In this document: in pieces, positions 2,691 through 9,660 of the stretch
Position numbering within the stretch: the first letter of the stretch is position 1
Layout of the letters: every line of letters starts with the position of its first letter
Source of the DNA: Eubacteriales bacterium
Lineage (GTDB): Bacteria > Bacillota > Clostridia > Lachnospirales > JAVBJQ01
Reading direction: 5' to 3'
DNA length: 64,000 bases
Assembly: GCA_031546905.1 (NCBI GenBank)
Contig: JAVBJQ010000046.1
Location: 15,589-79,588 of the forward strand
Notes under the pieces: generated by a model
The model's input: the letters and a program-made list of their open reading frames with translations, nothing else
The model's database searches: none
Told to the model about the DNA's origin: nothing
Position numbers and translations under genes: made by a program

Positions 2691-3176
2691 ATGAACAAAG
2701 AACAACAGGTCATAAAGGGTTTTAGAGACTTATTAAACAAAATAGTTTTGCTTAATAAGTTTAAAATGGAAGACAGCCTTAAGGCTCATAAGTCTTCTGA
2801 AGTACATTGCATTGAATACATTGGAAGAAATGTAGATTCCAACGTGACAAAACTTGCGGAGTCCTTTTATATGACTAATGGTGCCATAAGTAAAATAACA
2901 AAGAAGCTCATAAAAAAAGGCATTATCGAAAGCTATCAGAAGCCGGATAATAAAAAAGAAATCTATTTTAGGCTTACCGAAGAAGGGAAAGCAATTAATA
3001 AAGTCCATGAGGAACTACACAAAGAGTTTCAAGAGCGGGATAAAGTCGTATTTGAGCAGATAACCGAGGAACAATTTGACAGCATGATTAGCTTTGTGGA
3101 AAAGTATAGTAGGCATTTGGATGCAGAAATAAAGAAGCAAGGTATAGATGTTTTAAATCGGAATAAATTTGAATAA
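2691..3176 (+). CDS. MarR-family transcriptional regulator
   Basis: About 160 aa with a winged-HTH region ('VTKLAESFYMTNGAISKITKKLIKKGIIE...DNKKEIYFRLTEEG'). It sits directly upstream of an MFS efflux gene. Confidence 0.8.
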   Translation: MNKEQQVIKGFRDLLNKIVLLNKFKMEDSLKAHKSSEVHCIEYIGRNVDSNVTKLAESFYMTNGAISKITKKLIKKGIIESYQKPDNKKEIYFRLTEEGKAINKVHEELHKEFQERDKVVFEQITEEQFDSMISFVEKYSRHLDAEIKKQGIDVLNRNKFE

Positions 3177-3239
3177 TGAAAATGAAACGACGGGCAGCCA
3201 GCTCTATTCTGAACAGGCTGCATTTTTATTTCTATTATT

Positions 3240-3295
3240 TTGTTGACAAGGAAACAAAATGATGATACGATAAATATGTTTCCAAGGAAACAAAA
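3240..3295 (+). promoter_or_regulatory. Promoter/operator region of the MFS gene
   Basis: Second copy of TTGTTGACAAGGAAACAAAA (3240-3259, contains TTGACA), plus the perfect palindrome TGTTTCC-AA-GGAAACA at 3277-3292. Confidence 0.5.
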
Positions 3296-3321
3296 ATATC
3301 ACCTTTGAGGGGAGAATTCAA

Positions 3322-4557
3322 ATGAACAAAGTTAGATCACAAAATGAACAGAATACAGAACAAACCGTAGATAAAAAGGCTTTAATATTCGGTCTTATGT
3401 CTGTGTTTCTTTGTGGAATAGGCTTCACTATCATAGCACCTGTCGTACCATTCTTAGTGCAACCTTATATAAGCAATCCGGGAGATCAAGCTATCGTTGT
3501 TACACTACTCATGTCTGTTTATGCAGTATGCGTATTTTTTGCAGCACCGGGGCTTGGAGCTTTGAGTGACAGATATGGCCGTCGTCCATTACTATTAGTA
3601 TGCCTTTTGGGTTCTGCAATTGGGTACATCGTTTTTGGTGTAGGAGGAGCTTTATGGGTGCTATTTGCTGGGCGCATAATAGAAGGTATAACAGGCGGGA
3701 GCATAAGCACCATCTTCGCATATTTTGCAGACATCATTCCTAGAGAACAACGAACAAAATACTTTGGATGGGTGAGTGCAGTTGTAGGGGTTGGCACTAT
3801 CCTTGGCCCAACGCTAGGCGGATTACTTGCCCACTTTGGTAATTCTGTACCATTTTATTTTGGAGCAGGAATCACTTTAGTGAATGTTGTTTTTGGATTC
3901 TTTTATATGCCTGAGAGTCTTGACAAGAAAGATAGACTGAAAGAGATTGCATTTGCAAGGCTGAATCCTTTTACACAGCTTGTAAACCTACTTTCTATGA
4001 AAAACTTATCAAGGTTACTTATCTCAGCATTCTTACTTTGGATACCCAACGGATCTTTCCAGGCAATTTTCTCACAATTCACAATAGATACTTTCAGTTG
4101 GAAACCTGCAATAATCGGACTTATGTTTTCCATTATGGGCTTCCAAGATATCTTTTCACAAGGTTTCATAATGCCAAAACTTTTGAAAATACTTAGTGAT
4201 AAACAGATAGCAATGCTTGGAATGGTTTCGGAGATTATAGGATACGGTCTTATTGCAGCATCGACTTTGTTTACATTTTATCCTCTTTTTATCGTTGGAA
4301 TGTTTATATTTGGCTTTGGTGATTCTATCTTTGGGCCTTCATTTAATGGGATGATCTCCAAGTCTGTGGATTCTAGTGAACAGGGACGGATTCAAGGCGG
4401 AAGCCAATCTATTCAGGCTTTAGCAAGAATAATTGGGCCAGTCATTGGCGGTTCAATTTATGTATCACTTGGTCATGCTGCACCTGCTTTTATGGGTGTG
4501 ATCTTTATAGCAGCGGCAGTAATCGTTTTGCATAAGGGTACCCATGCAAATATATAA
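3322..4557 (+). CDS. MFS (DHA1-type) drug/H+ antiporter-like efflux transporter
   Basis: About 12 hydrophobic segments and MFS motif A 'GALSDRYGRRPLL'. Paired with the MarR gene. Confidence 0.85.
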   Translation: MNKVRSQNEQNTEQTVDKKALIFGLMSVFLCGIGFTIIAPVVPFLVQPYISNPGDQAIVVTLLMSVYAVCVFFAAPGLGALSDRYGRRPLLLVCLLGSAIGYIVFGVGGALWVLFAGRIIEGITGGSISTIFAYFADIIPREQRTKYFGWVSAVVGVGTILGPTLGGLLAHFGNSVPFYFGAGITLVNVVFGFFYMPESLDKKDRLKEIAFARLNPFTQLVNLLSMKNLSRLLISAFLLWIPNGSFQAIFSQFTIDTFSWKPAIIGLMFSIMGFQDIFSQGFIMPKLLKILSDKQIAMLGMVSEIIGYGLIAASTLFTFYPLFIVGMFIFGFGDSIFGPSFNGMISKSVDSSEQGRIQGGSQSIQALARIIGPVIGGSIYVSLGHAAPAFMGVIFIAAAVIVLHKGTHANI

Positions 4558-4710
4558 ACTGCCTACCTTCATCTTCCAGAGGGAAGGACTACTTGGGGCA
4601 AGTTGCCCCGAGGTAACCCACAACAAAATGCAACAACGTACCTCCCATGCAAGACAAAGAGTGTTGTTCGGTGGGTGATAACAACTTTAGCCATATTTTA
4701 GACAATAAGA

Positions 4711-4744
4711 AATCCTGCCATTATTTAAAGTGGTAGGATTTTTA
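4711..4744 (+). terminator. Rho-independent terminator (reads as a terminator on the + strand)
   Basis: AATCCTGCCA / TGGTAGGATT stem followed by TTTTT, about 150 nt after the MFS stop. Confidence 0.55.
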
Positions 4745-4781: not shown

Positions 4782-5783
4782 TTACTTATTGGTTATCTTA
4801 TTTATATTTTTTAGTTCGATTGACAATGTCCCATTGGGGTTGTTTATAAACTCAATATACTCCTTATTTTGAGAATAATCAGATGGAAAAGAAATTTCGA
4901 TTCCTGTATCTGTTTTTATTTTATGTAATTTCGCTGTTTTAATTGCCAATTCCCTATCTACTCTTACTACATCACTAATTCCAACTTTTGAAATTTCTTG
5001 AATAAATTCTTCCTGCATAATGCTAGAGGTGCTAAATACTTCTTTAGCGAGTTCTTTTGGCTCAATATAATCAGATATTTCTGCATTTTCGACAATAAAG
5101 TTTTTAGTTTTTGATACCGTAGCCACACTATTCTCTCCATGGTTATCAGCCACTTGCCGAGTTATAGTTTGCACTAATTTAAGAGTATCTTTTTGGGATA
5201 TACTAGAAGTGCATTGCAAAACAATATCAGGTAATATAAAAATATCCTTGCCATTAACATAACTTTTTTTATCACAAAAATCTATTTGGAAATTCTTCAT
5301 ATTGATAAAAGCATAAGAATCGACCTTTTGTGAAGGGGTAGGCAAGATAGCAAAGTGATTAATAATCTCATTTCTAATCACTCCATTATCATTAGTGACC
5401 TGATGGGTAAATCCTACTCTATTATTATATTCTAGTATTCCGATAATTTGAGTATCCTCATCGGTAAATTCACAGACAATAATATCGGTTGAACTCTGTT
5501 TGTCTGACTGCAAGATTGCTGAATGAATGGTCTCAGCAATTGATGCAGAAAAGGCAATAAAGCTAATTTCATTATTTAATAATAGGTTAAGTTGAGAGCG
5601 CATATTACTGTTTTCTAAAAATTCACCTTTTTTTATGCCTCTATCATAAAAAGATCTTTCAATATGTTTAATTAAAAAGTTCAATATACTTTGGTTTTGT
5701 AAATTCAATTCTTGCTCTGAATAAACAGTTATATTAGAATTAAAATCTAAAATATGAAGAATAGCTTTATTTATTATTATCAT
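4782..5783 (-). CDS. NdpA/YejK-like nucleoid-associated (putative DNA-binding) protein, gene 3 of the operon
   Basis: N-terminal 'INKAILHILDF' resembles E. coli YejK 'INQIALHQLIK'. 'FIAFSASIAE...DIIVCEF' parallels YejK 'FLAFSRAATG...GIVLFCHY'. Start preferred at the ATG at 5783 (RBS AGAGGA 8 nt upstream); the track start 5804 is the alternative. It overlaps the upstream gene by 17 nt. Confidence 0.55.
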   Translation of the reverse strand: MIIINKAILHILDFNSNITVYSEQELNLQNQSILNFLIKHIERSFYDRGIKKGEFLENSNMRSQLNLLLNNEISFIAFSASIAETIHSAILQSDKQSSTDIIVCEFTDEDTQIIGILEYNNRVGFTHQVTNDNGVIRNEIINHFAILPTPSQKVDSYAFINMKNFQIDFCDKKSYVNGKDIFILPDIVLQCTSSISQKDTLKLVQTITRQVADNHGENSVATVSKTKNFIVENAEISDYIEPKELAKEVFSTSSIMQEEFIQEISKVGISDVVRVDRELAIKTAKLHKIKTDTGIEISFPSDYSQNKEYIEFINNPNGTLSIELKNINKITNK

Positions 5784-6414
5784 TATCTTTATCCTCTTTC
5801 TCATTTTCTATAAAACTCAAAATTTTATAGGATAAACTAGCTCTAAATAACCTTATAGTATTATATATCGTGCTCTTCAATTCGTAAATAATTCGAAAAA
5901 CAAATGTTAAATAAATGAAAATGGATACAATTGCCAAAGAGTTATTTAGCGTATTATTTGATGTTAAAACAAAGTTATCATCAACACAATTTAAAAACAA
6001 TAATAAGATACCACTTATTGCTATAGCAATGAAATATAAAAATAAAACAGATTCATAATAAGTTGTACTTTCTTTTAAAAAGCTGATTCCATTTTTTGAA
6101 TCTATTTTTGCTAACTTTTTTATATATTCATCATTTAAAAAAGCCAACAATATCGAATAAACAGCGAAAATACAACCAAAAACAGCAAGGACAACTTCAA
6201 ATAAAGTGCCAACTACTGATGTTAAAATCTGAACAGTATTTAAACTTAATCCAATTATTAGTCCAAAAATGATTCCAAAAGTAGCTGAAATAATAATTGA
6301 AAAAAGATTTCCTCGCTGAGGTAATATCTCTTTTAAGGCATCTTTAATCATCTTAGATGCAGGAGTATCGACAAGAAATTCTTCAATTGTGGAAAAATAA
6401 TTTTTTCTACTCAT
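5767..6414 (-). CDS. Integral membrane protein with four predicted TM helices (hypothetical), gene 2 of the operon
   Basis: RBS AAAGGAGAAG. Hydrophobic segments are LFSIIISATFGIIFGLIIGLSL, ILTSVVGTLFEVVLAVFGCIFAVYSILLAFL, SVLFLYFIAIAISGILLLFL and LAIVSIFIYLTFVFRIIY, with an acidic tail ENEKEDKDNDNNK. Confidence 0.65.
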   Translation of the reverse strand: MSRKNYFSTIEEFLVDTPASKMIKDALKEILPQRGNLFSIIISATFGIIFGLIIGLSLNTVQILTSVVGTLFEVVLAVFGCIFAVYSILLAFLNDEYIKKLAKIDSKNGISFLKESTTYYESVLFLYFIAIAISGILLLFLNCVDDNFVLTSNNTLNNSLAIVSIFIYLTFVFRIIYELKSTIYNTIRLFRASLSYKILSFIENEKEDKDNDNNK

Positions 6415-6439
6415 TCTTATCTTCTCCTTTCTTAATTCA

Positions 6440-7378
6440 TTAAATTTCCTTTAGCTTATGTATTTTGTGGATAGAAGATTCATATATTTTTTTGTTTTCG
6501 TTACTTATTTCATTCATCTTTTTGTTTTCCTTCGAAATTGAGATTAAGTTCTCATCATCTGTTTCAATAATATCCCGCCCGAACGGTATTTTCTTACTTG
6601 ACTTAAATTCTTTTTGAGAAACCTTTTTTTTGCTACCTTCCTTGTCAACAATTTCCATACTAGGTTCAATTAATCCAGAAATATCTTCTAAAATGTTTAA
6701 AGCACCTTCTTTTGAATTTGGAGAGTTTATTTTCCAATTGCTATTTTTGCTATCTAAGGATTGCATACCACTTCGAATGTCCCTAAACACAGGTGATAAG
6801 TCCAAATCATTATTTAATGGAAAAAATCTTAAATTTAGCCATTTTATTTTTTCAGCTTGCTCTAAAACTTCGGATATTTCCTCTCTAGATGGAGTGTCAA
6901 TTATATTTACTATTGCAATAGGAAGTTTGGTCTCACCATCTTCGATTCTTGTCTTATTGATTTCTCTGATATAGTAATCAAGTATTTTTCTTGCCATAAC
7001 TTGGAAACTACGTATATCTGGACTATTGGGTTCGTTCTTGATTAAGAACATACGATGATTTTCTAAAAAAATGGTAAACCTGGAGTATGGAGATGTTGGA
7101 ATAGTTATTGGTGATGGGACTAAATCTTGCCCTTCGGAAAGCGTTCGTCTTTCTAGTTCATCGTCCTTTACGAAATTACCTACCAGAACAAACTTGTCCT
7201 CATATGTTTTTATTTCAATATCATTGAAGTAGTATCTAGGCAATTCATTTTCTTTTCCATTAGTATAACCACTTGTAAATGCTGGGTAGATGATATCATC
7301 AAAATGTGAAAGCATGGGTAGTTCCTCTTCACCAAAAGTAACATTAAAATTTGCAAATTGCATAATTTTTTCTTCCAT
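6440..7378 (-). CDS. Hypothetical 312-aa cytosolic protein with a Lys/Glu/Asn/Ser-rich C-terminal tail, gene 1 of the operon
   Basis: RBS GGGAGGG lies 10 nt upstream of the ATG, with a TATAAT-like -10 box at 7412-7407 (minus strand). I recognise no catalytic motif. It is 25 nt from the next gene. Confidence 0.6.
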   Translation of the reverse strand: MEEKIMQFANFNVTFGEEELPMLSHFDDIIYPAFTSGYTNGKENELPRYYFNDIEIKTYEDKFVLVGNFVKDDELERRTLSEGQDLVPSPITIPTSPYSRFTIFLENHRMFLIKNEPNSPDIRSFQVMARKILDYYIREINKTRIEDGETKLPIAIVNIIDTPSREEISEVLEQAEKIKWLNLRFFPLNNDLDLSPVFRDIRSGMQSLDSKNSNWKINSPNSKEGALNILEDISGLIEPSMEIVDKEGSKKKVSQKEFKSSKKIPFGRDIIETDDENLISISKENKKMNEISNENKKIYESSIHKIHKLKEI

Positions 7379-7564
7379 AAAAAATAAACCCTCCCAATAA
7401 TTTAGAATTATATTTTCCAGATTCGTTACAACACTCTTTCAAATTTCGACTTAATTGCTTTGGCAATAACACCAATCTCGATCATTTGAAAACGTTCTCA
7501 TTTAATCTATGTATTAAAATTTTGCAGGGATGGTCTGATTGTCTTGCAAATTCCGCAACGCTAA

Positions 7565-8491
7565 TCCCAAAACGCACGTATAATACTCCTATTCATTAAA
7601 AACCCTGTATATTACGGTGCTATGGCACAGGGAAAACGCTCGGTAAAATCCTTTAAGAACAAACAAATATCCAAAAATCCTGTTGATACATGGATTGTCG
7701 TTGAGGATATGCACACTCCCATTATAAAAAAAAGTGCATGGGAAGAAGCACAAAGCCAAATGACAAAAAATCATGTGGGAATACGCCGTAATAAAGACGG
7801 TGATGTGAGCTTGTTCTCTGGCGTAGTTGTTTGTGCCGATTGCGGTACAAAAATGACTTTTGATTGTAGGCACTACCAAACGTATACAAAAGAATATTAC
7901 CGCTGTGGCAGGTACAAAAACAGAGGTTCTAACGCTTGTAATCCTCATACAATCTTGTTAAATACGCTTTCTAAAGCAGTTATTACAGACCTCAGACAAT
8001 ATGCTAGATTGGCTCAAAATGACGAAAACAGGCTAATTGAACGGCTTTTAAAAACACACAGTTCTATAAAGCAGAAAGACATACGCGAATTTGAAATCCA
8101 AATCAAAGAGAAAGAATATAGAGTGAAAGAAATTGATAATCTTATTCAATCTCTCTTTGAAGAAAAAGTCGGTGGTACTGTTCCCGAAAACATTTTTAAA
8201 CGCATGGCTAAAAAATACGATGATGAGCAGACAACCATTTTTGCAGAGTTGGAAGAAATGAAAAAGGACTTGTCAGCTTGCAAAGAAACCGAAAAAGATA
8301 TTTCGACTTGGATTGAAAAAATCAAAAAGTGTCTTTCATTAGAAACATTGTCAAGAGAAATTGTGTCAGAACTTATAGAAAAAATAGAAGTGTCGGAAGT
8401 GTACGAGCGTGATGGCAAAGAACAGCAAGACATAAACATTACCTATAAGTTTGAAAACGCATTTCCAGAGAAAGAAAAAAGAGTAAGTTAG
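7565..8491 (+). pseudogene. 5'-truncated large serine recombinase (recombinase domain, zinc ribbon and coiled coil only)
   Basis: 'IKNPVYYG' is encoded in frame upstream of the listed Met, back to a stop at 7562-7564. 'CADCGTKMTF...YYRCGRYKNRGSNAC' is the zinc ribbon, followed by a long coiled-coil tail. The N-terminal resolvase catalytic domain is absent. Confidence 0.75.
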
Positions 8492-8534: not shown

Positions 8535-8570
8535 TATTCTCAAAAAAATTTTTGGTGATTAAATCTAAAA

Positions 8571-8659
8571 CGGAGAAAGAGGGATTTGAACCCTCGCACC
8601 GCTATTAACGGTCTACTCCCTTTCCAGGGGAGCCCCTTCAGCCACTTGGGTACTTCTCC
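8571..8659 (-). tRNA. tRNA-Ser (anticodon GGA), class II with a long variable arm, no encoded CCA
   Basis: Minus-strand sequence GGAGAAGTACCCAAGTGGCTGAAGGGGCTCCCCTGGAAAGGGAGTAGACCGTTAATAGCGGTGCGAGGGTTCAAATCCCTCTTTCTCCG. The acceptor stem, T arm GAGGG-TTCAAAT-CCCTC and anticodon loop CTGGAAA all fold manually. Confidence 0.9.
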
Positions 8660-8727
8660 AAAATACTTATAAAATATACATGATAATTTGCATTTCGTCA
8701 AGTAGAAATTTTTTAAATTTAAAACCG

Positions 8728-8786: not shown

Positions 8787-8810
8787 GATTTGATAGAGGA
8801 GAATTTTAAA

Positions 8811-9290
8811 ATGAAGATACCAACAAATCTTAAACATAAACCGGTTATTGTTTGCGAGAATTATGAAAATATTGATGGGAGAGTTGCCTATAACTCAGAG
8901 GCAAAAGGGCTTTCTTTAGGTTTAGCACAATGGAATGATAGAGGTAAAATAGATATTTCAGCAAAAGTTTGGAGATATACAGGTGAAAAGTGGTCAAGGC
9001 AGTCAGAGGAGTTGCCATTACACCGTGTAATTGACCTTGCCATTTTAATTTGCAGAAGTAAACTACACTTTAGAGATGCTTATGTTCATAAAGATTTATA
9101 TGATAAAGAAAATACAACCATTGATAGAATTGGACTGCAAGGGGATGCAATGACGGTATCTGTTTGTACAGACAATGAAATGATTGATGAAGATATTAAA
9201 TTATTGTCCCAAGCCCTTAGCAGTGATGACGAACTTATTTCTGAAAGATTAAAAGTGCTTTCAAAAATTTTAGGTGAGATGGGCTATTAA
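8811..9290 (+). CDS. Conserved hypothetical protein (~159 aa)
   Basis: ATG at 8811 lies 9 nt after the RBS AGAGGAG; the track ORF starts at a TTG at 8790. I recognise no catalytic motif. Confidence 0.6.
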   Translation: MKIPTNLKHKPVIVCENYENIDGRVAYNSEAKGLSLGLAQWNDRGKIDISAKVWRYTGEKWSRQSEELPLHRVIDLAILICRSKLHFRDAYVHKDLYDKENTTIDRIGLQGDAMTVSVCTDNEMIDEDIKLLSQALSSDDELISERLKVLSKILGEMGY

Positions 9291-9312
9291 AAATATGTTA
9301 GGAGTGTAAGAA

Positions 9313-9660
9313 ATGGATCGTAAAAAAGAATTAAAAGATTTATACAAGCAAATGAAACAAGACATGGGTGTGCTTATGATAAAACATAAAAATACAAAAA
9401 AATGTTTTCTTGAAGCAACACCAAATATAAAAGCAAGATTTAATAGTACAAAACTTAAACTGGATGCGGGTTATTACTATAATAAAGAACTTCAAGCTGA
9501 TTGGAGTAAGTTTGGCAGTGCTGAATTTGAGGTTAAAGTTTTGGAACTGCTAGAATATGACAAAGATGAAAGTAAGACAGACTACAGTGCTGATTTAGAG
9601 CTTTTAAAAGACATTTGGGAAGAGAAATTAAAAAAGGAAGAGTATGTATTTTACAAATAG
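9313..9660 (+). CDS. Small GIY-YIG-like domain protein with degenerate signature
   Basis: Layout 'GVLMIKHKNTKKCFLEAT...RFNSTKLKL..G..YNKELQADWSKFG...FEVKVLE' matches short GIY-YIG family proteins, but GIY is replaced by GVL and YIG by CFL. Confidence 0.45.
   Translation: MDRKKELKDLYKQMKQDMGVLMIKHKNTKKCFLEATPNIKARFNSTKLKLDAGYYYNKELQADWSKFGSAEFEVKVLELLEYDKDESKTDYSADLELLKDIWEEKLKKEEYVFYK

Follow-up and report, generated by a model that had tools for sequence, protein, structure and literature searches.

The window analysed here is a 64,000-nucleotide (nt) stretch of contig JAVBJQ010000046.1 from a Eubacteriales bacterium. Its minus strand carries, at positions 4782-7378, three consecutive open reading frames (ORFs) that an initial annotation had singled out as a candidate undescribed system; we call them genes 1-3, and the profile, fold and census results below refer to them. 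Genes 1-3 are real and form a tight co-transcribed operon, as had been proposed. Genes 1 and 2 are spaced by 25 nt (6415-6439), and genes 2 and 3 share 17 nt when gene 3 starts at the ATG at 5783. Eight bases 5′ of this ATG lies the ribosome-binding site AGAGGA; GGGAGGG precedes gene 1 and AAGGAG precedes gene 2, all three being read from the sequence. From its earliest in-frame ATG the gene 3 ORF would span 5804..4782 (340 amino acids [aa], against 333 aa from 5783), and an alternative gene 1 start, the ATG at 7363, gives the 307-aa form found in a public protein collection. The candidate promoter of the operon was missed by a consensus promoter scan because no -35 hexamer reached 4/6. The hairpin at the opposite end of the operon is a probable bidirectional terminator. 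Coordinates are collected in Table 1.

Table 1. The three-gene operon and the features that surround it in the window
Feature	Position	Strand	Remarks
Gene 1	6440..7378	-	ORF list; 312 aa; soluble protein, large uncharacterised family
Gene 2	5767..6414	-	ORF list; 215-aa membrane protein
Gene 3	4782..5783	-	333-aa NA37/YejK-family nucleoid-associated protein
Candidate operon promoter (perfect TATAAT)	7407..7412	-	28 nt 5′ of the gene 1 start codon; no good -35
Hairpin	4708..4743	both	15 pairs, T/A runs at the sides; between convergent gene 3 and MFS gene
Large serine recombinase, 5′-truncated	7622..8491	+	last 47 positions of the Recombinase domain, Zn_ribbon_recom, DUF4368
tRNA-Ser(GGA)	8570..8660	-	3′ end toward the recombinase fragment
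MarR and MFS genes	2691-4557		opposite flank of the cassette

NA37 proteins are usually described as nucleoid proteins of Gram-negative bacteria. Gene 3 is a genuine member of this NA37/YejK family, in agreement with its earlier description as NdpA/YejK-like. It matched Pfam PF04245 with 114.3 bits (cutoff 24.6; E 1e-32) over profile positions 1-322 of 325, and phrog_1974 matched it with E 1.7e-32. When its AlphaFold2 (AF2) model (predicted local distance difference test [pLDDT] 78.8) was searched against the PDB with Foldseek, the sole significant match was E. coli YejK (9be2; E 6.7e-11, probability 1.0, template modelling [TM] score 0.45). Gene 3 is only ~15% identical to YejK over the structural alignment, and it scored 29.3 bits against the NCBIfam YejK equivalog NF001557, whose cutoff is 341 bits. 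Because it falls so far under that threshold, gene 3 is a Bacillota-type NA37 relative and not a YejK orthologue; it differs from YejK and NdpA also in belonging to a Bacillota subfamily that is encoded here within a mobile operon instead of by a stand-alone core gene. YejK forms a dimeric clamp that holds DNA without sequence specificity (PMC11229321). Since gene 3 shares the NA37 family and the two-domain YejK fold, it presumably has the same non-specific DNA-clamp activity. Of the 350,542 chains searched with the gene 3 model, two of KwaB (9mrx_D and 9nyu_A) took ranks two and three behind YejK, with full-length alignments (E 0.19-0.23, probability 0.13-0.18, TM 0.21-0.25). This ranking, obtained with a predicted model, hints at a possible common fold of DUF4868 and NA37, which, if true, would link Kiwa to nucleoid-protein-based defence; our literature search found no paper treating both KwaB and YejK.

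Gene 2 encodes a small membrane protein with four helices predicted from hydropathy at about residues 40-58, 74-92, 123-141 and 155-177, as the initial annotation had also read it. The N-terminus, a 30-aa central loop and an acidic C-tail are predicted by the positive-inside rule to face the cytoplasm, and the 39 residues before helix 1 include 6 K/R and 5 D/E. In the family alignment, the motif FRxxYE-x-KSTIYNT is conserved after helix 4, and E178, K180 and N185 are invariant. Gene 2 had no match in Pfam, where the RexB family (PF15968) was among the models not matched, or in PADLOC. BLASTP comparison of gene 2 with RexB, with CarolAnn gp43 and with the gene 2 counterpart found in Salinivibrio (described below) gave no significant result.

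Gene 1 had been taken for an orphan, which proved incorrect. We found 190 homologues (90% clustering) of ~310 aa and 41-55% identity, and a profile search retrieved at least 681 cluster representatives (50% clustering) at E <= 1e-3, 148 of them at E <= 1e-30. The AF2 model of gene 1 was of high quality (pLDDT 91.9, predicted TM score 0.88). Gene 1 had no match in Pfam, NCBIfam, PADLOC or PHROGs, and Foldseek found no fold relative for its model in the PDB (best E 0.23); structures of RexA and RdgC were not among the top 50 PDB matches, and an RdgC-like split two-domain fold was thus not detected. In BFVD, the gene 1 model matched four uncharacterised metagenomic phage proteins of the same size (E 1e-8 to 1e-9) and, far more weakly, a phage RdgC (E 0.086, TM 0.22).

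Two candidate identities of gene 1 were considered. The Pfam models for RexA (PF15969) and DUF4747 (PF15931) matched neither window gene 1 nor 25 close or 47 diverse members of its family; a weak precomputed DUF4747 flag on two homologues (P0045 and P0096) was not reproduced on direct scan. Alignment of gene 1 by hhalign with lambda RexA, with CarolAnn gp44 and with a three-sequence actinophage profile gave probabilities <1%; as the positive control, the actinophage gp44/gp30 profile against lambda RexA, also gave just 0.3%, this comparison has no power. Homology of gene 1 to RexA therefore found no support from Pfam, PDB sequence search or Foldseek, and is unproven rather than excluded. Gene 1 as a DNA mimic was ruled out, the family not being acidic (median isoelectric point 7.8). 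The 3′ end of gene 1 (window 6440-6560) contains a 24-nt imperfect direct repeat with a 30-nt spacer (6479-6532; TTCAT..TTTTTGTTTTC), which codes for a repeated NENKK(M/I) peptide at the C-terminus and is probably a low-complexity feature of no significance.

The operon was placed in a wider context by scanning from both of its ends. In a gene-1-seeded scan of one genome per species (30 loci), gene 2 lay directly 3′ of gene 1 in 28 loci; the two exceptions were a contig-end cut and a fragment. Gene 1 is the invariable partner of gene 2, and the linkage of the two is obligate. An NA37 gene came next in five of these loci (L001, L009, L010, L011 and L028; ~5/26 complete loci), and in the others the following gene was mostly on the opposite strand. 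In metagenomes, an NA37-seeded scan yielded 69 loci whose upstream sequence was long enough to be judged. Seven of these contained genes 1 and 2, and the remaining 62 NA37 genes were stand-alone, with EamA/DapB as neighbours in Sporomusa and, in one case, adjoining gyrA. Wherever NA37 follows the pair it overlaps or abuts gene 2, the overlap being 1-20 nt in 15 of 16 three-gene cassettes. Because the pair recurs in 28/30 loci and the gene 2/3 overlap in 15/16 cassettes, the operon layout is not due to chance. The initial annotation had treated the trio as one system and had staked its proposal on co-occurrence of the homologues outside the source genome. They do co-occur, the pair in 28 loci and the trio in 16 cassettes; what is conserved as a unit, however, is genes 1 and 2 together, and the NA37 gene is an optional but tightly coupled addition. 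Because the nucleoid-associated protein (NAP) gene is optional, a NAP-centred survey would see only a minority of cassettes.

In the NA37 tree, cassette copies were scattered among stand-alone ones, and in the gene 1 tree two-gene and three-gene cassettes were intermixed. Pairwise distances of genes 1, 2 and 3 in 15 cassettes were correlated (Pearson 0.92-0.96, Spearman 0.65-0.83), to which shared host phylogeny may contribute. The conserved gene 2/3 overlap together with these correlated distances indicates that the functional association is stable in those cassettes that carry the NAP gene.

The pair was found in Oscillospiraceae, Lachnospiraceae, Ruminococcus, Negativicutes including Veillonellales, Desulfosporosinus, many Collinsella (Actinomycetota) and one archaeon. 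On a Salinivibrio replicon, a gene 1 relative of 28% identity lies among insertion sequence (IS) elements, and the gene after it encodes a four-helix protein of 210 aa. The archaeon is a Methanimicrococcus sp., a methanogen, which carries the full trio (L028:1777-4394) with a gene 1 of 30% identity, a four-helix gene 2 and an NA37 gene overlapping gene 2 by 20 nt; this complete cassette implies inter-domain transfer. Decaying copies were seen in Firmicutes bacterium CAG:124 and Collinsella aerofaciens (L021, L025 and L026): gene 1 is broken into two ORFs in L021 and L026, and in L025 it is truncated and ~5.8 kb of inserted DNA separates it from gene 2. A ~380-aa ORF 3′ of the pair in Collinsella was considered as an alternative third component and rejected, since it encodes a signal-peptide LPxTG-type surface protein unrelated to NA37. 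Stand-alone NA37 genes 40-57% identical to gene 3 are common in housekeeping contexts in Negativicutes and Clostridia (L033 from Sporomusa malonica, L055 and ~60 metagenome loci).

Judged by the neighbourhoods of its homologues, the pair resides chiefly in prophages. Among 150 neighbour proteins from 17 loci scanned with Pfam, the commonest families were SPP1 portal, phage minor capsid, terminases, Mu F, VapE and sigma-70 region 4, and a large terminase gene lay 0.5-3 kb downstream in six loci (L010, L011, L027, L037, L039 and L040). A prophage of Desulfosporosinus youngiae carries the trio behind its XhlA/amidase lysis genes. In a Cellulosilyticaceae prophage (L041), the pair lies between SSB/ParM-like genes and a stretch with HicAB, a Dam methylase, an integrase and a terminase-portal-capsid block. 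The pair was also present on six IMG/VR viral contigs, and tblastn detected no gene 1 homologue in GenBank phages. In Oscillibacter (L042), the trio stands at the edge of an element with a complete 635-aa Resolvase+Recombinase serine recombinase, beside a chemoreceptor gene, an arrangement that closely resembles the window locus. In L043, the pair abuts a tyrosine integrase. The context signal is that of prophage cargo rather than of a defence island. The neighbourhood analysis found genes 1 and 2 together and close to integrases or within prophages; known defence genes were rare, and gene 3 was usually absent.

Two further observations were made at these loci. The Oscillibacter cassette is preceded by a 72-aa HTH_26-like gene (L042:9769-9987) that ends 14 nt before gene 1 and could be a dedicated regulator; the window copy has no such gene, the upstream region there having gone together with the 5′ end of the recombinase. 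In L043 (11690-19417) and L044, three large ORFs of 547, 714 and 602 aa come after the integrase; Pfam gave nothing for them except a weak DUF4365 match on the 602-aa ORF, and they possibly form an uncharacterised defence island.

In the window, the flanks proved to be as first described, namely a 5′-truncated serine recombinase beside a tRNA gene on one side and a MarR/MFS pair on the other, and the locus is a decayed integrative element. The recombinase fragment, in which a Pfam scan found no catalytic Resolvase domain, is what remains of the element with which the cassette arrived, and tRNA-Ser(GGA) is likely its former integration site. No att-like repeats bounding the island were found between the tRNA-Ser and the MFS gene, where only AT-rich chance matches occurred. 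Elsewhere the window consists of core chromosome (clpC, gap, tig, clpP and clpX), other flanking genes belong to non-defence Pfam families, and there is no second NA37 gene within the window. The initial annotation had also noted that the coding sequence is AT-rich. The GC content of the cassette is 0.291 against a window mean of 0.324 (standard deviation 0.023), 1.4 standard deviations lower, and only gene 2 (0.25) is markedly low. The AT bias is therefore real yet modest, because 9% of same-size windows have a GC content equal to or below that of the cassette. AT-richness was rejected as a sign of foreign origin of the cassette, the deviation being only 1.4 standard deviations.

Just past the tRNA-Ser gene, the plus strand at 8790-9660 encodes a DUF6530 protein (E 2e-84) with weak Card1-endonuclease and Csm3-like matches, and a 115-aa ORF with a weak homing-endonuclease/GIY-YIG-like match (phrog_7168, 1e-5). 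These could be another small cargo pair of the island. A PADLOC search with five proteins (genes 1-3 and these two ORFs) gave only weak matches, to a homing endonuclease (HEase, 5e-6) and to Csm3 (0.0024).

The closest published parallel to the operon is PANGU, in which a YejK-like NAP and its effector, a toxSAS toxin in type I and a membrane protein in type II, protect E. coli from T4 by abortive infection (bioRxiv 10.64898/2026.04.06.716658). When host DNA is degraded by phage nucleases, the PANGU NAP departs from the nucleoid; it binds a DNA-mimic domain in the effector (bioRxiv 10.64898/2026.04.06.716658). That preprint, of April 2026, surveyed ten operon clusters; one of them, Cluster4, in which two conserved hypothetical proteins are encoded ahead of the NAP gene, occurs across phyla and was left untested (bioRxiv 10.64898/2026.04.06.716658). 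By analogy with these systems, the operon is most likely a variant of nucleoid-protein-based anti-phage systems. It has a 333-aa YejK-like NAP (the PANGU criterion being >=300 aa), a spacing below 40 bp at both junctions and a membrane protein as one of the partners. As in Cluster4, two hypothetical genes lie 5′ of the NAP gene, a layout kept in the 16 cassettes. Its distribution likewise crosses phyla, and its cassette NAPs are polyphyletic relative to stand-alone NAPs, as the preprint reports. It differs from PANGU in that the NAP is dispensable, most gene 1-gene 2 pairs having none. The claim of an undescribed system thus holds in part: no catalogue model matches the genes, whereas NAP-plus-effector defence and the Cluster4 layout had already been listed (bioRxiv 10.64898/2026.04.06.716658). 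The general concept of a NAP combined with an effector is already published; what is new here is that the NAP is optional and that the gene 1 family is uncatalogued.

The pair by itself has another parallel. Lambda RexA/RexB, Sbash gp30/31 and CarolAnn gp44/43 each combine a soluble sensor with a four-helix membrane protein, are expressed from prophages and act by abortive infection (PMC6426596, PMC6426606). DUF4747 has been reported in RexA and gp30 (PMC6426596), and RexA has an RdgC-like fold, binds DNA non-specifically and has a RexB-independent regulatory role (PMC11077077). Like these systems, the pair is a prophage-borne two-gene unit in which a soluble protein of ~280-370 aa is followed immediately 3′, often with an overlap, by a membrane protein of four helices whose central loop is cytoplasmic. 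The homologues, like RexAB, are lysogen cargo, whereas the window copy is an isolated remnant. Unlike RexB, gene 2 is ~50% longer, and an extra NAP gene is present in a subset of loci. In architecture, RexAB is a closer analogue of the gene 1-gene 2 pair than Kiwa, as an analogy only.

On these grounds we lean toward the view that the operon is a mobile prophage-type anti-phage module, acting by abortive infection or exclusion, that was left by a decayed integrative element at tRNA-Ser. This agrees with the defence or exclusion role that the initial annotation had considered, and the prophage contexts of the homologues make it the best reading. The defence role, the direction of signalling and the activity of the membrane effector are proposed from PANGU type II, lambda RexAB and Sbash gp30/31. 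The core of such a module would be the soluble gene 1 protein and the four-helix gene 2 protein, to which gene 3, a putative DNA-clamp NAP, has been added with its translation coupled to gene 2. In the uninfected cell, the NAP would reside on chromosomal DNA and the membrane protein would be inactive. An infecting phage that damages or remodels the nucleoid would release the NAP, and the released NAP, together with gene 1 as an adaptor, co-sensor or gatekeeper, would switch on the membrane protein. The activated membrane protein might then depolarise or permeabilise the membrane, so that phage growth stops. Because two-gene cassettes are the majority, gene 1 itself may be the sensor and act alone as the trigger-sensing partner in these versions, or a stand-alone NA37 of the host may act in trans.

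Several findings weigh against a defence module of this kind. The locus in the window is a decayed remnant, no PADLOC model matches genes 1-3, and no known defence genes were found within 10 kb of the cassette in the window. Known defence families were scarce also around the homologues (two methyltransferases and two SNF2 helicases among the 150 neighbour proteins), so that little is seen of the classic defence-island signal and the case is built on the prophage 'moron' positions. The resemblance to Cluster4 is one of described gene layout. Gene 2 has no counterpart of the large N-terminal acidic DNA-mimic domain of Pag2B, the part of PANGU effectors that binds the NAP, and its four helices span most of its length. 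Its acidic C-tail was considered as a NAP-binding element instead and rejected, because NA37-carrying cassettes do not differ from the others in this tail (Mann-Whitney p 0.64). For gene 1, no relationship to RexA, DUF4747 or RdgC could be detected. Finally, gene 3 has its closest relatives among ordinary stand-alone genes of the chromosome, so that gene 3 may simply be a nucleoid protein.

A bolder form of the proposal, which we offer tentatively as a possible one, is that the pair is an autonomous, widespread prophage-borne two-component abortive-infection system, with a fold that has no solved relative, and that the NAP is a plug-in sensor. NAP-less cassettes would use the host NA37 in trans. 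Carriers would have captured copies repeatedly from host chromosomes and thereby become host-independent, crossed phyla and reached archaea. If this NAP-optional reading is true, Cluster4 of the preprint would be a special case of a larger family.

Among the alternatives to an anti-phage module, we regard as unlikely, though the best surviving, a non-defence prophage function, such as lysis-lysogeny control, remodelling of the nucleoid on behalf of the prophage, or exclusion of related phages by blocking DNA injection at the membrane. The homologues are prophage-internal, lambda RexA also biases the lysogenic switch, a regulatory role of RexA that does not depend on RexB has been described (PMC11077077), and NA37 homologues occur in phages and Clostridium plasmids without a known defence role. 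However, copies of the pair were also seen away from any recognisable prophage, beside integrases, among IS elements and as the isolated remnant in the window, a distribution more in keeping with a self-contained cargo module than with a gene of the phage life cycle. Where the pair stands among the phage modules varies as well.

The initial annotation had drawn a loose comparison with Kiwa, and a mechanism of that type can be formulated: gene 2 would sense phage attachment or membrane perturbation, gene 3 would coat or block phage DNA, and gene 1 would be accessory. The order of a four-helix membrane gene and an overlapping gene for a ~320-aa DNA-binding protein does mirror KwaA-KwaB, and KwaB was the next-best fold match to gene 3 after YejK. 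These fold matches were not significant, though, and no PADLOC KwaA/KwaB or Pfam DUF4868 match was obtained with E up to 1; where the choice for gene 3 lay between NdpA and DUF4868/KwaB models, the NA37 model alone matched. Moreover, the constant partner of the membrane protein is the additional upstream gene, and gene 3 is absent from most cassettes, so a gene 3 effector cannot be the general mechanism. The comparison with Kiwa is thus weak, and we think it quite improbable that the operon works in this way.

We give little credence to an addiction or maintenance module, in which gene 2 would be a membrane toxin restrained by gene 1, and NA37 would help to keep the element silent or stable. 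Two tightly linked core genes, one of them for a small membrane protein, carried on mobile elements would suit such a module, as would the fact that the cassette in the window has outlived the rest of its element; in Pseudomonas, an NA37 paralogue, NdpA2, is reported to regulate transfer of an integrative and conjugative element (PMC8565334). But gene 1, at ~310 aa and conserved over its full length, is unlike the typical small labile antitoxins, the large soluble gene comes first, and no toxin-antitoxin family was matched. The PANGU operons that were tested were also not toxic when split (bioRxiv 10.64898/2026.04.06.716658).

It is very improbable that a housekeeping NAP gene merely happens to lie 3′ of two unrelated hypothetical genes: most close gene 3 relatives (62/69) are indeed stand-alone in core contexts, as is the nearest neighbour of window gene 3 in the NA37 tree, but coincidence is disfavoured because the gene 2/3 overlap is conserved, down to the archaeal cassette, and the three genes co-diverge, in cassettes that occur in unrelated hosts and prophages.

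Few anti-phage systems have been tested in gut and anaerobic Bacillota. If the operon serves in defence, a large uncatalogued family (at least 681 clusters at 50% identity, with no Pfam, PADLOC or PDB relative) would join the repertoire of these bacteria, and the fold of gene 1 is a good target for structure determination. The occurrence of the pair with and without a NAP gene is a natural experiment on NAPs recruited as infection sensors. Comparison of the two forms could show what the NAP contributes, such as trigger range or host independence, and whether a chromosomal NA37 doubles as an immune sensor.

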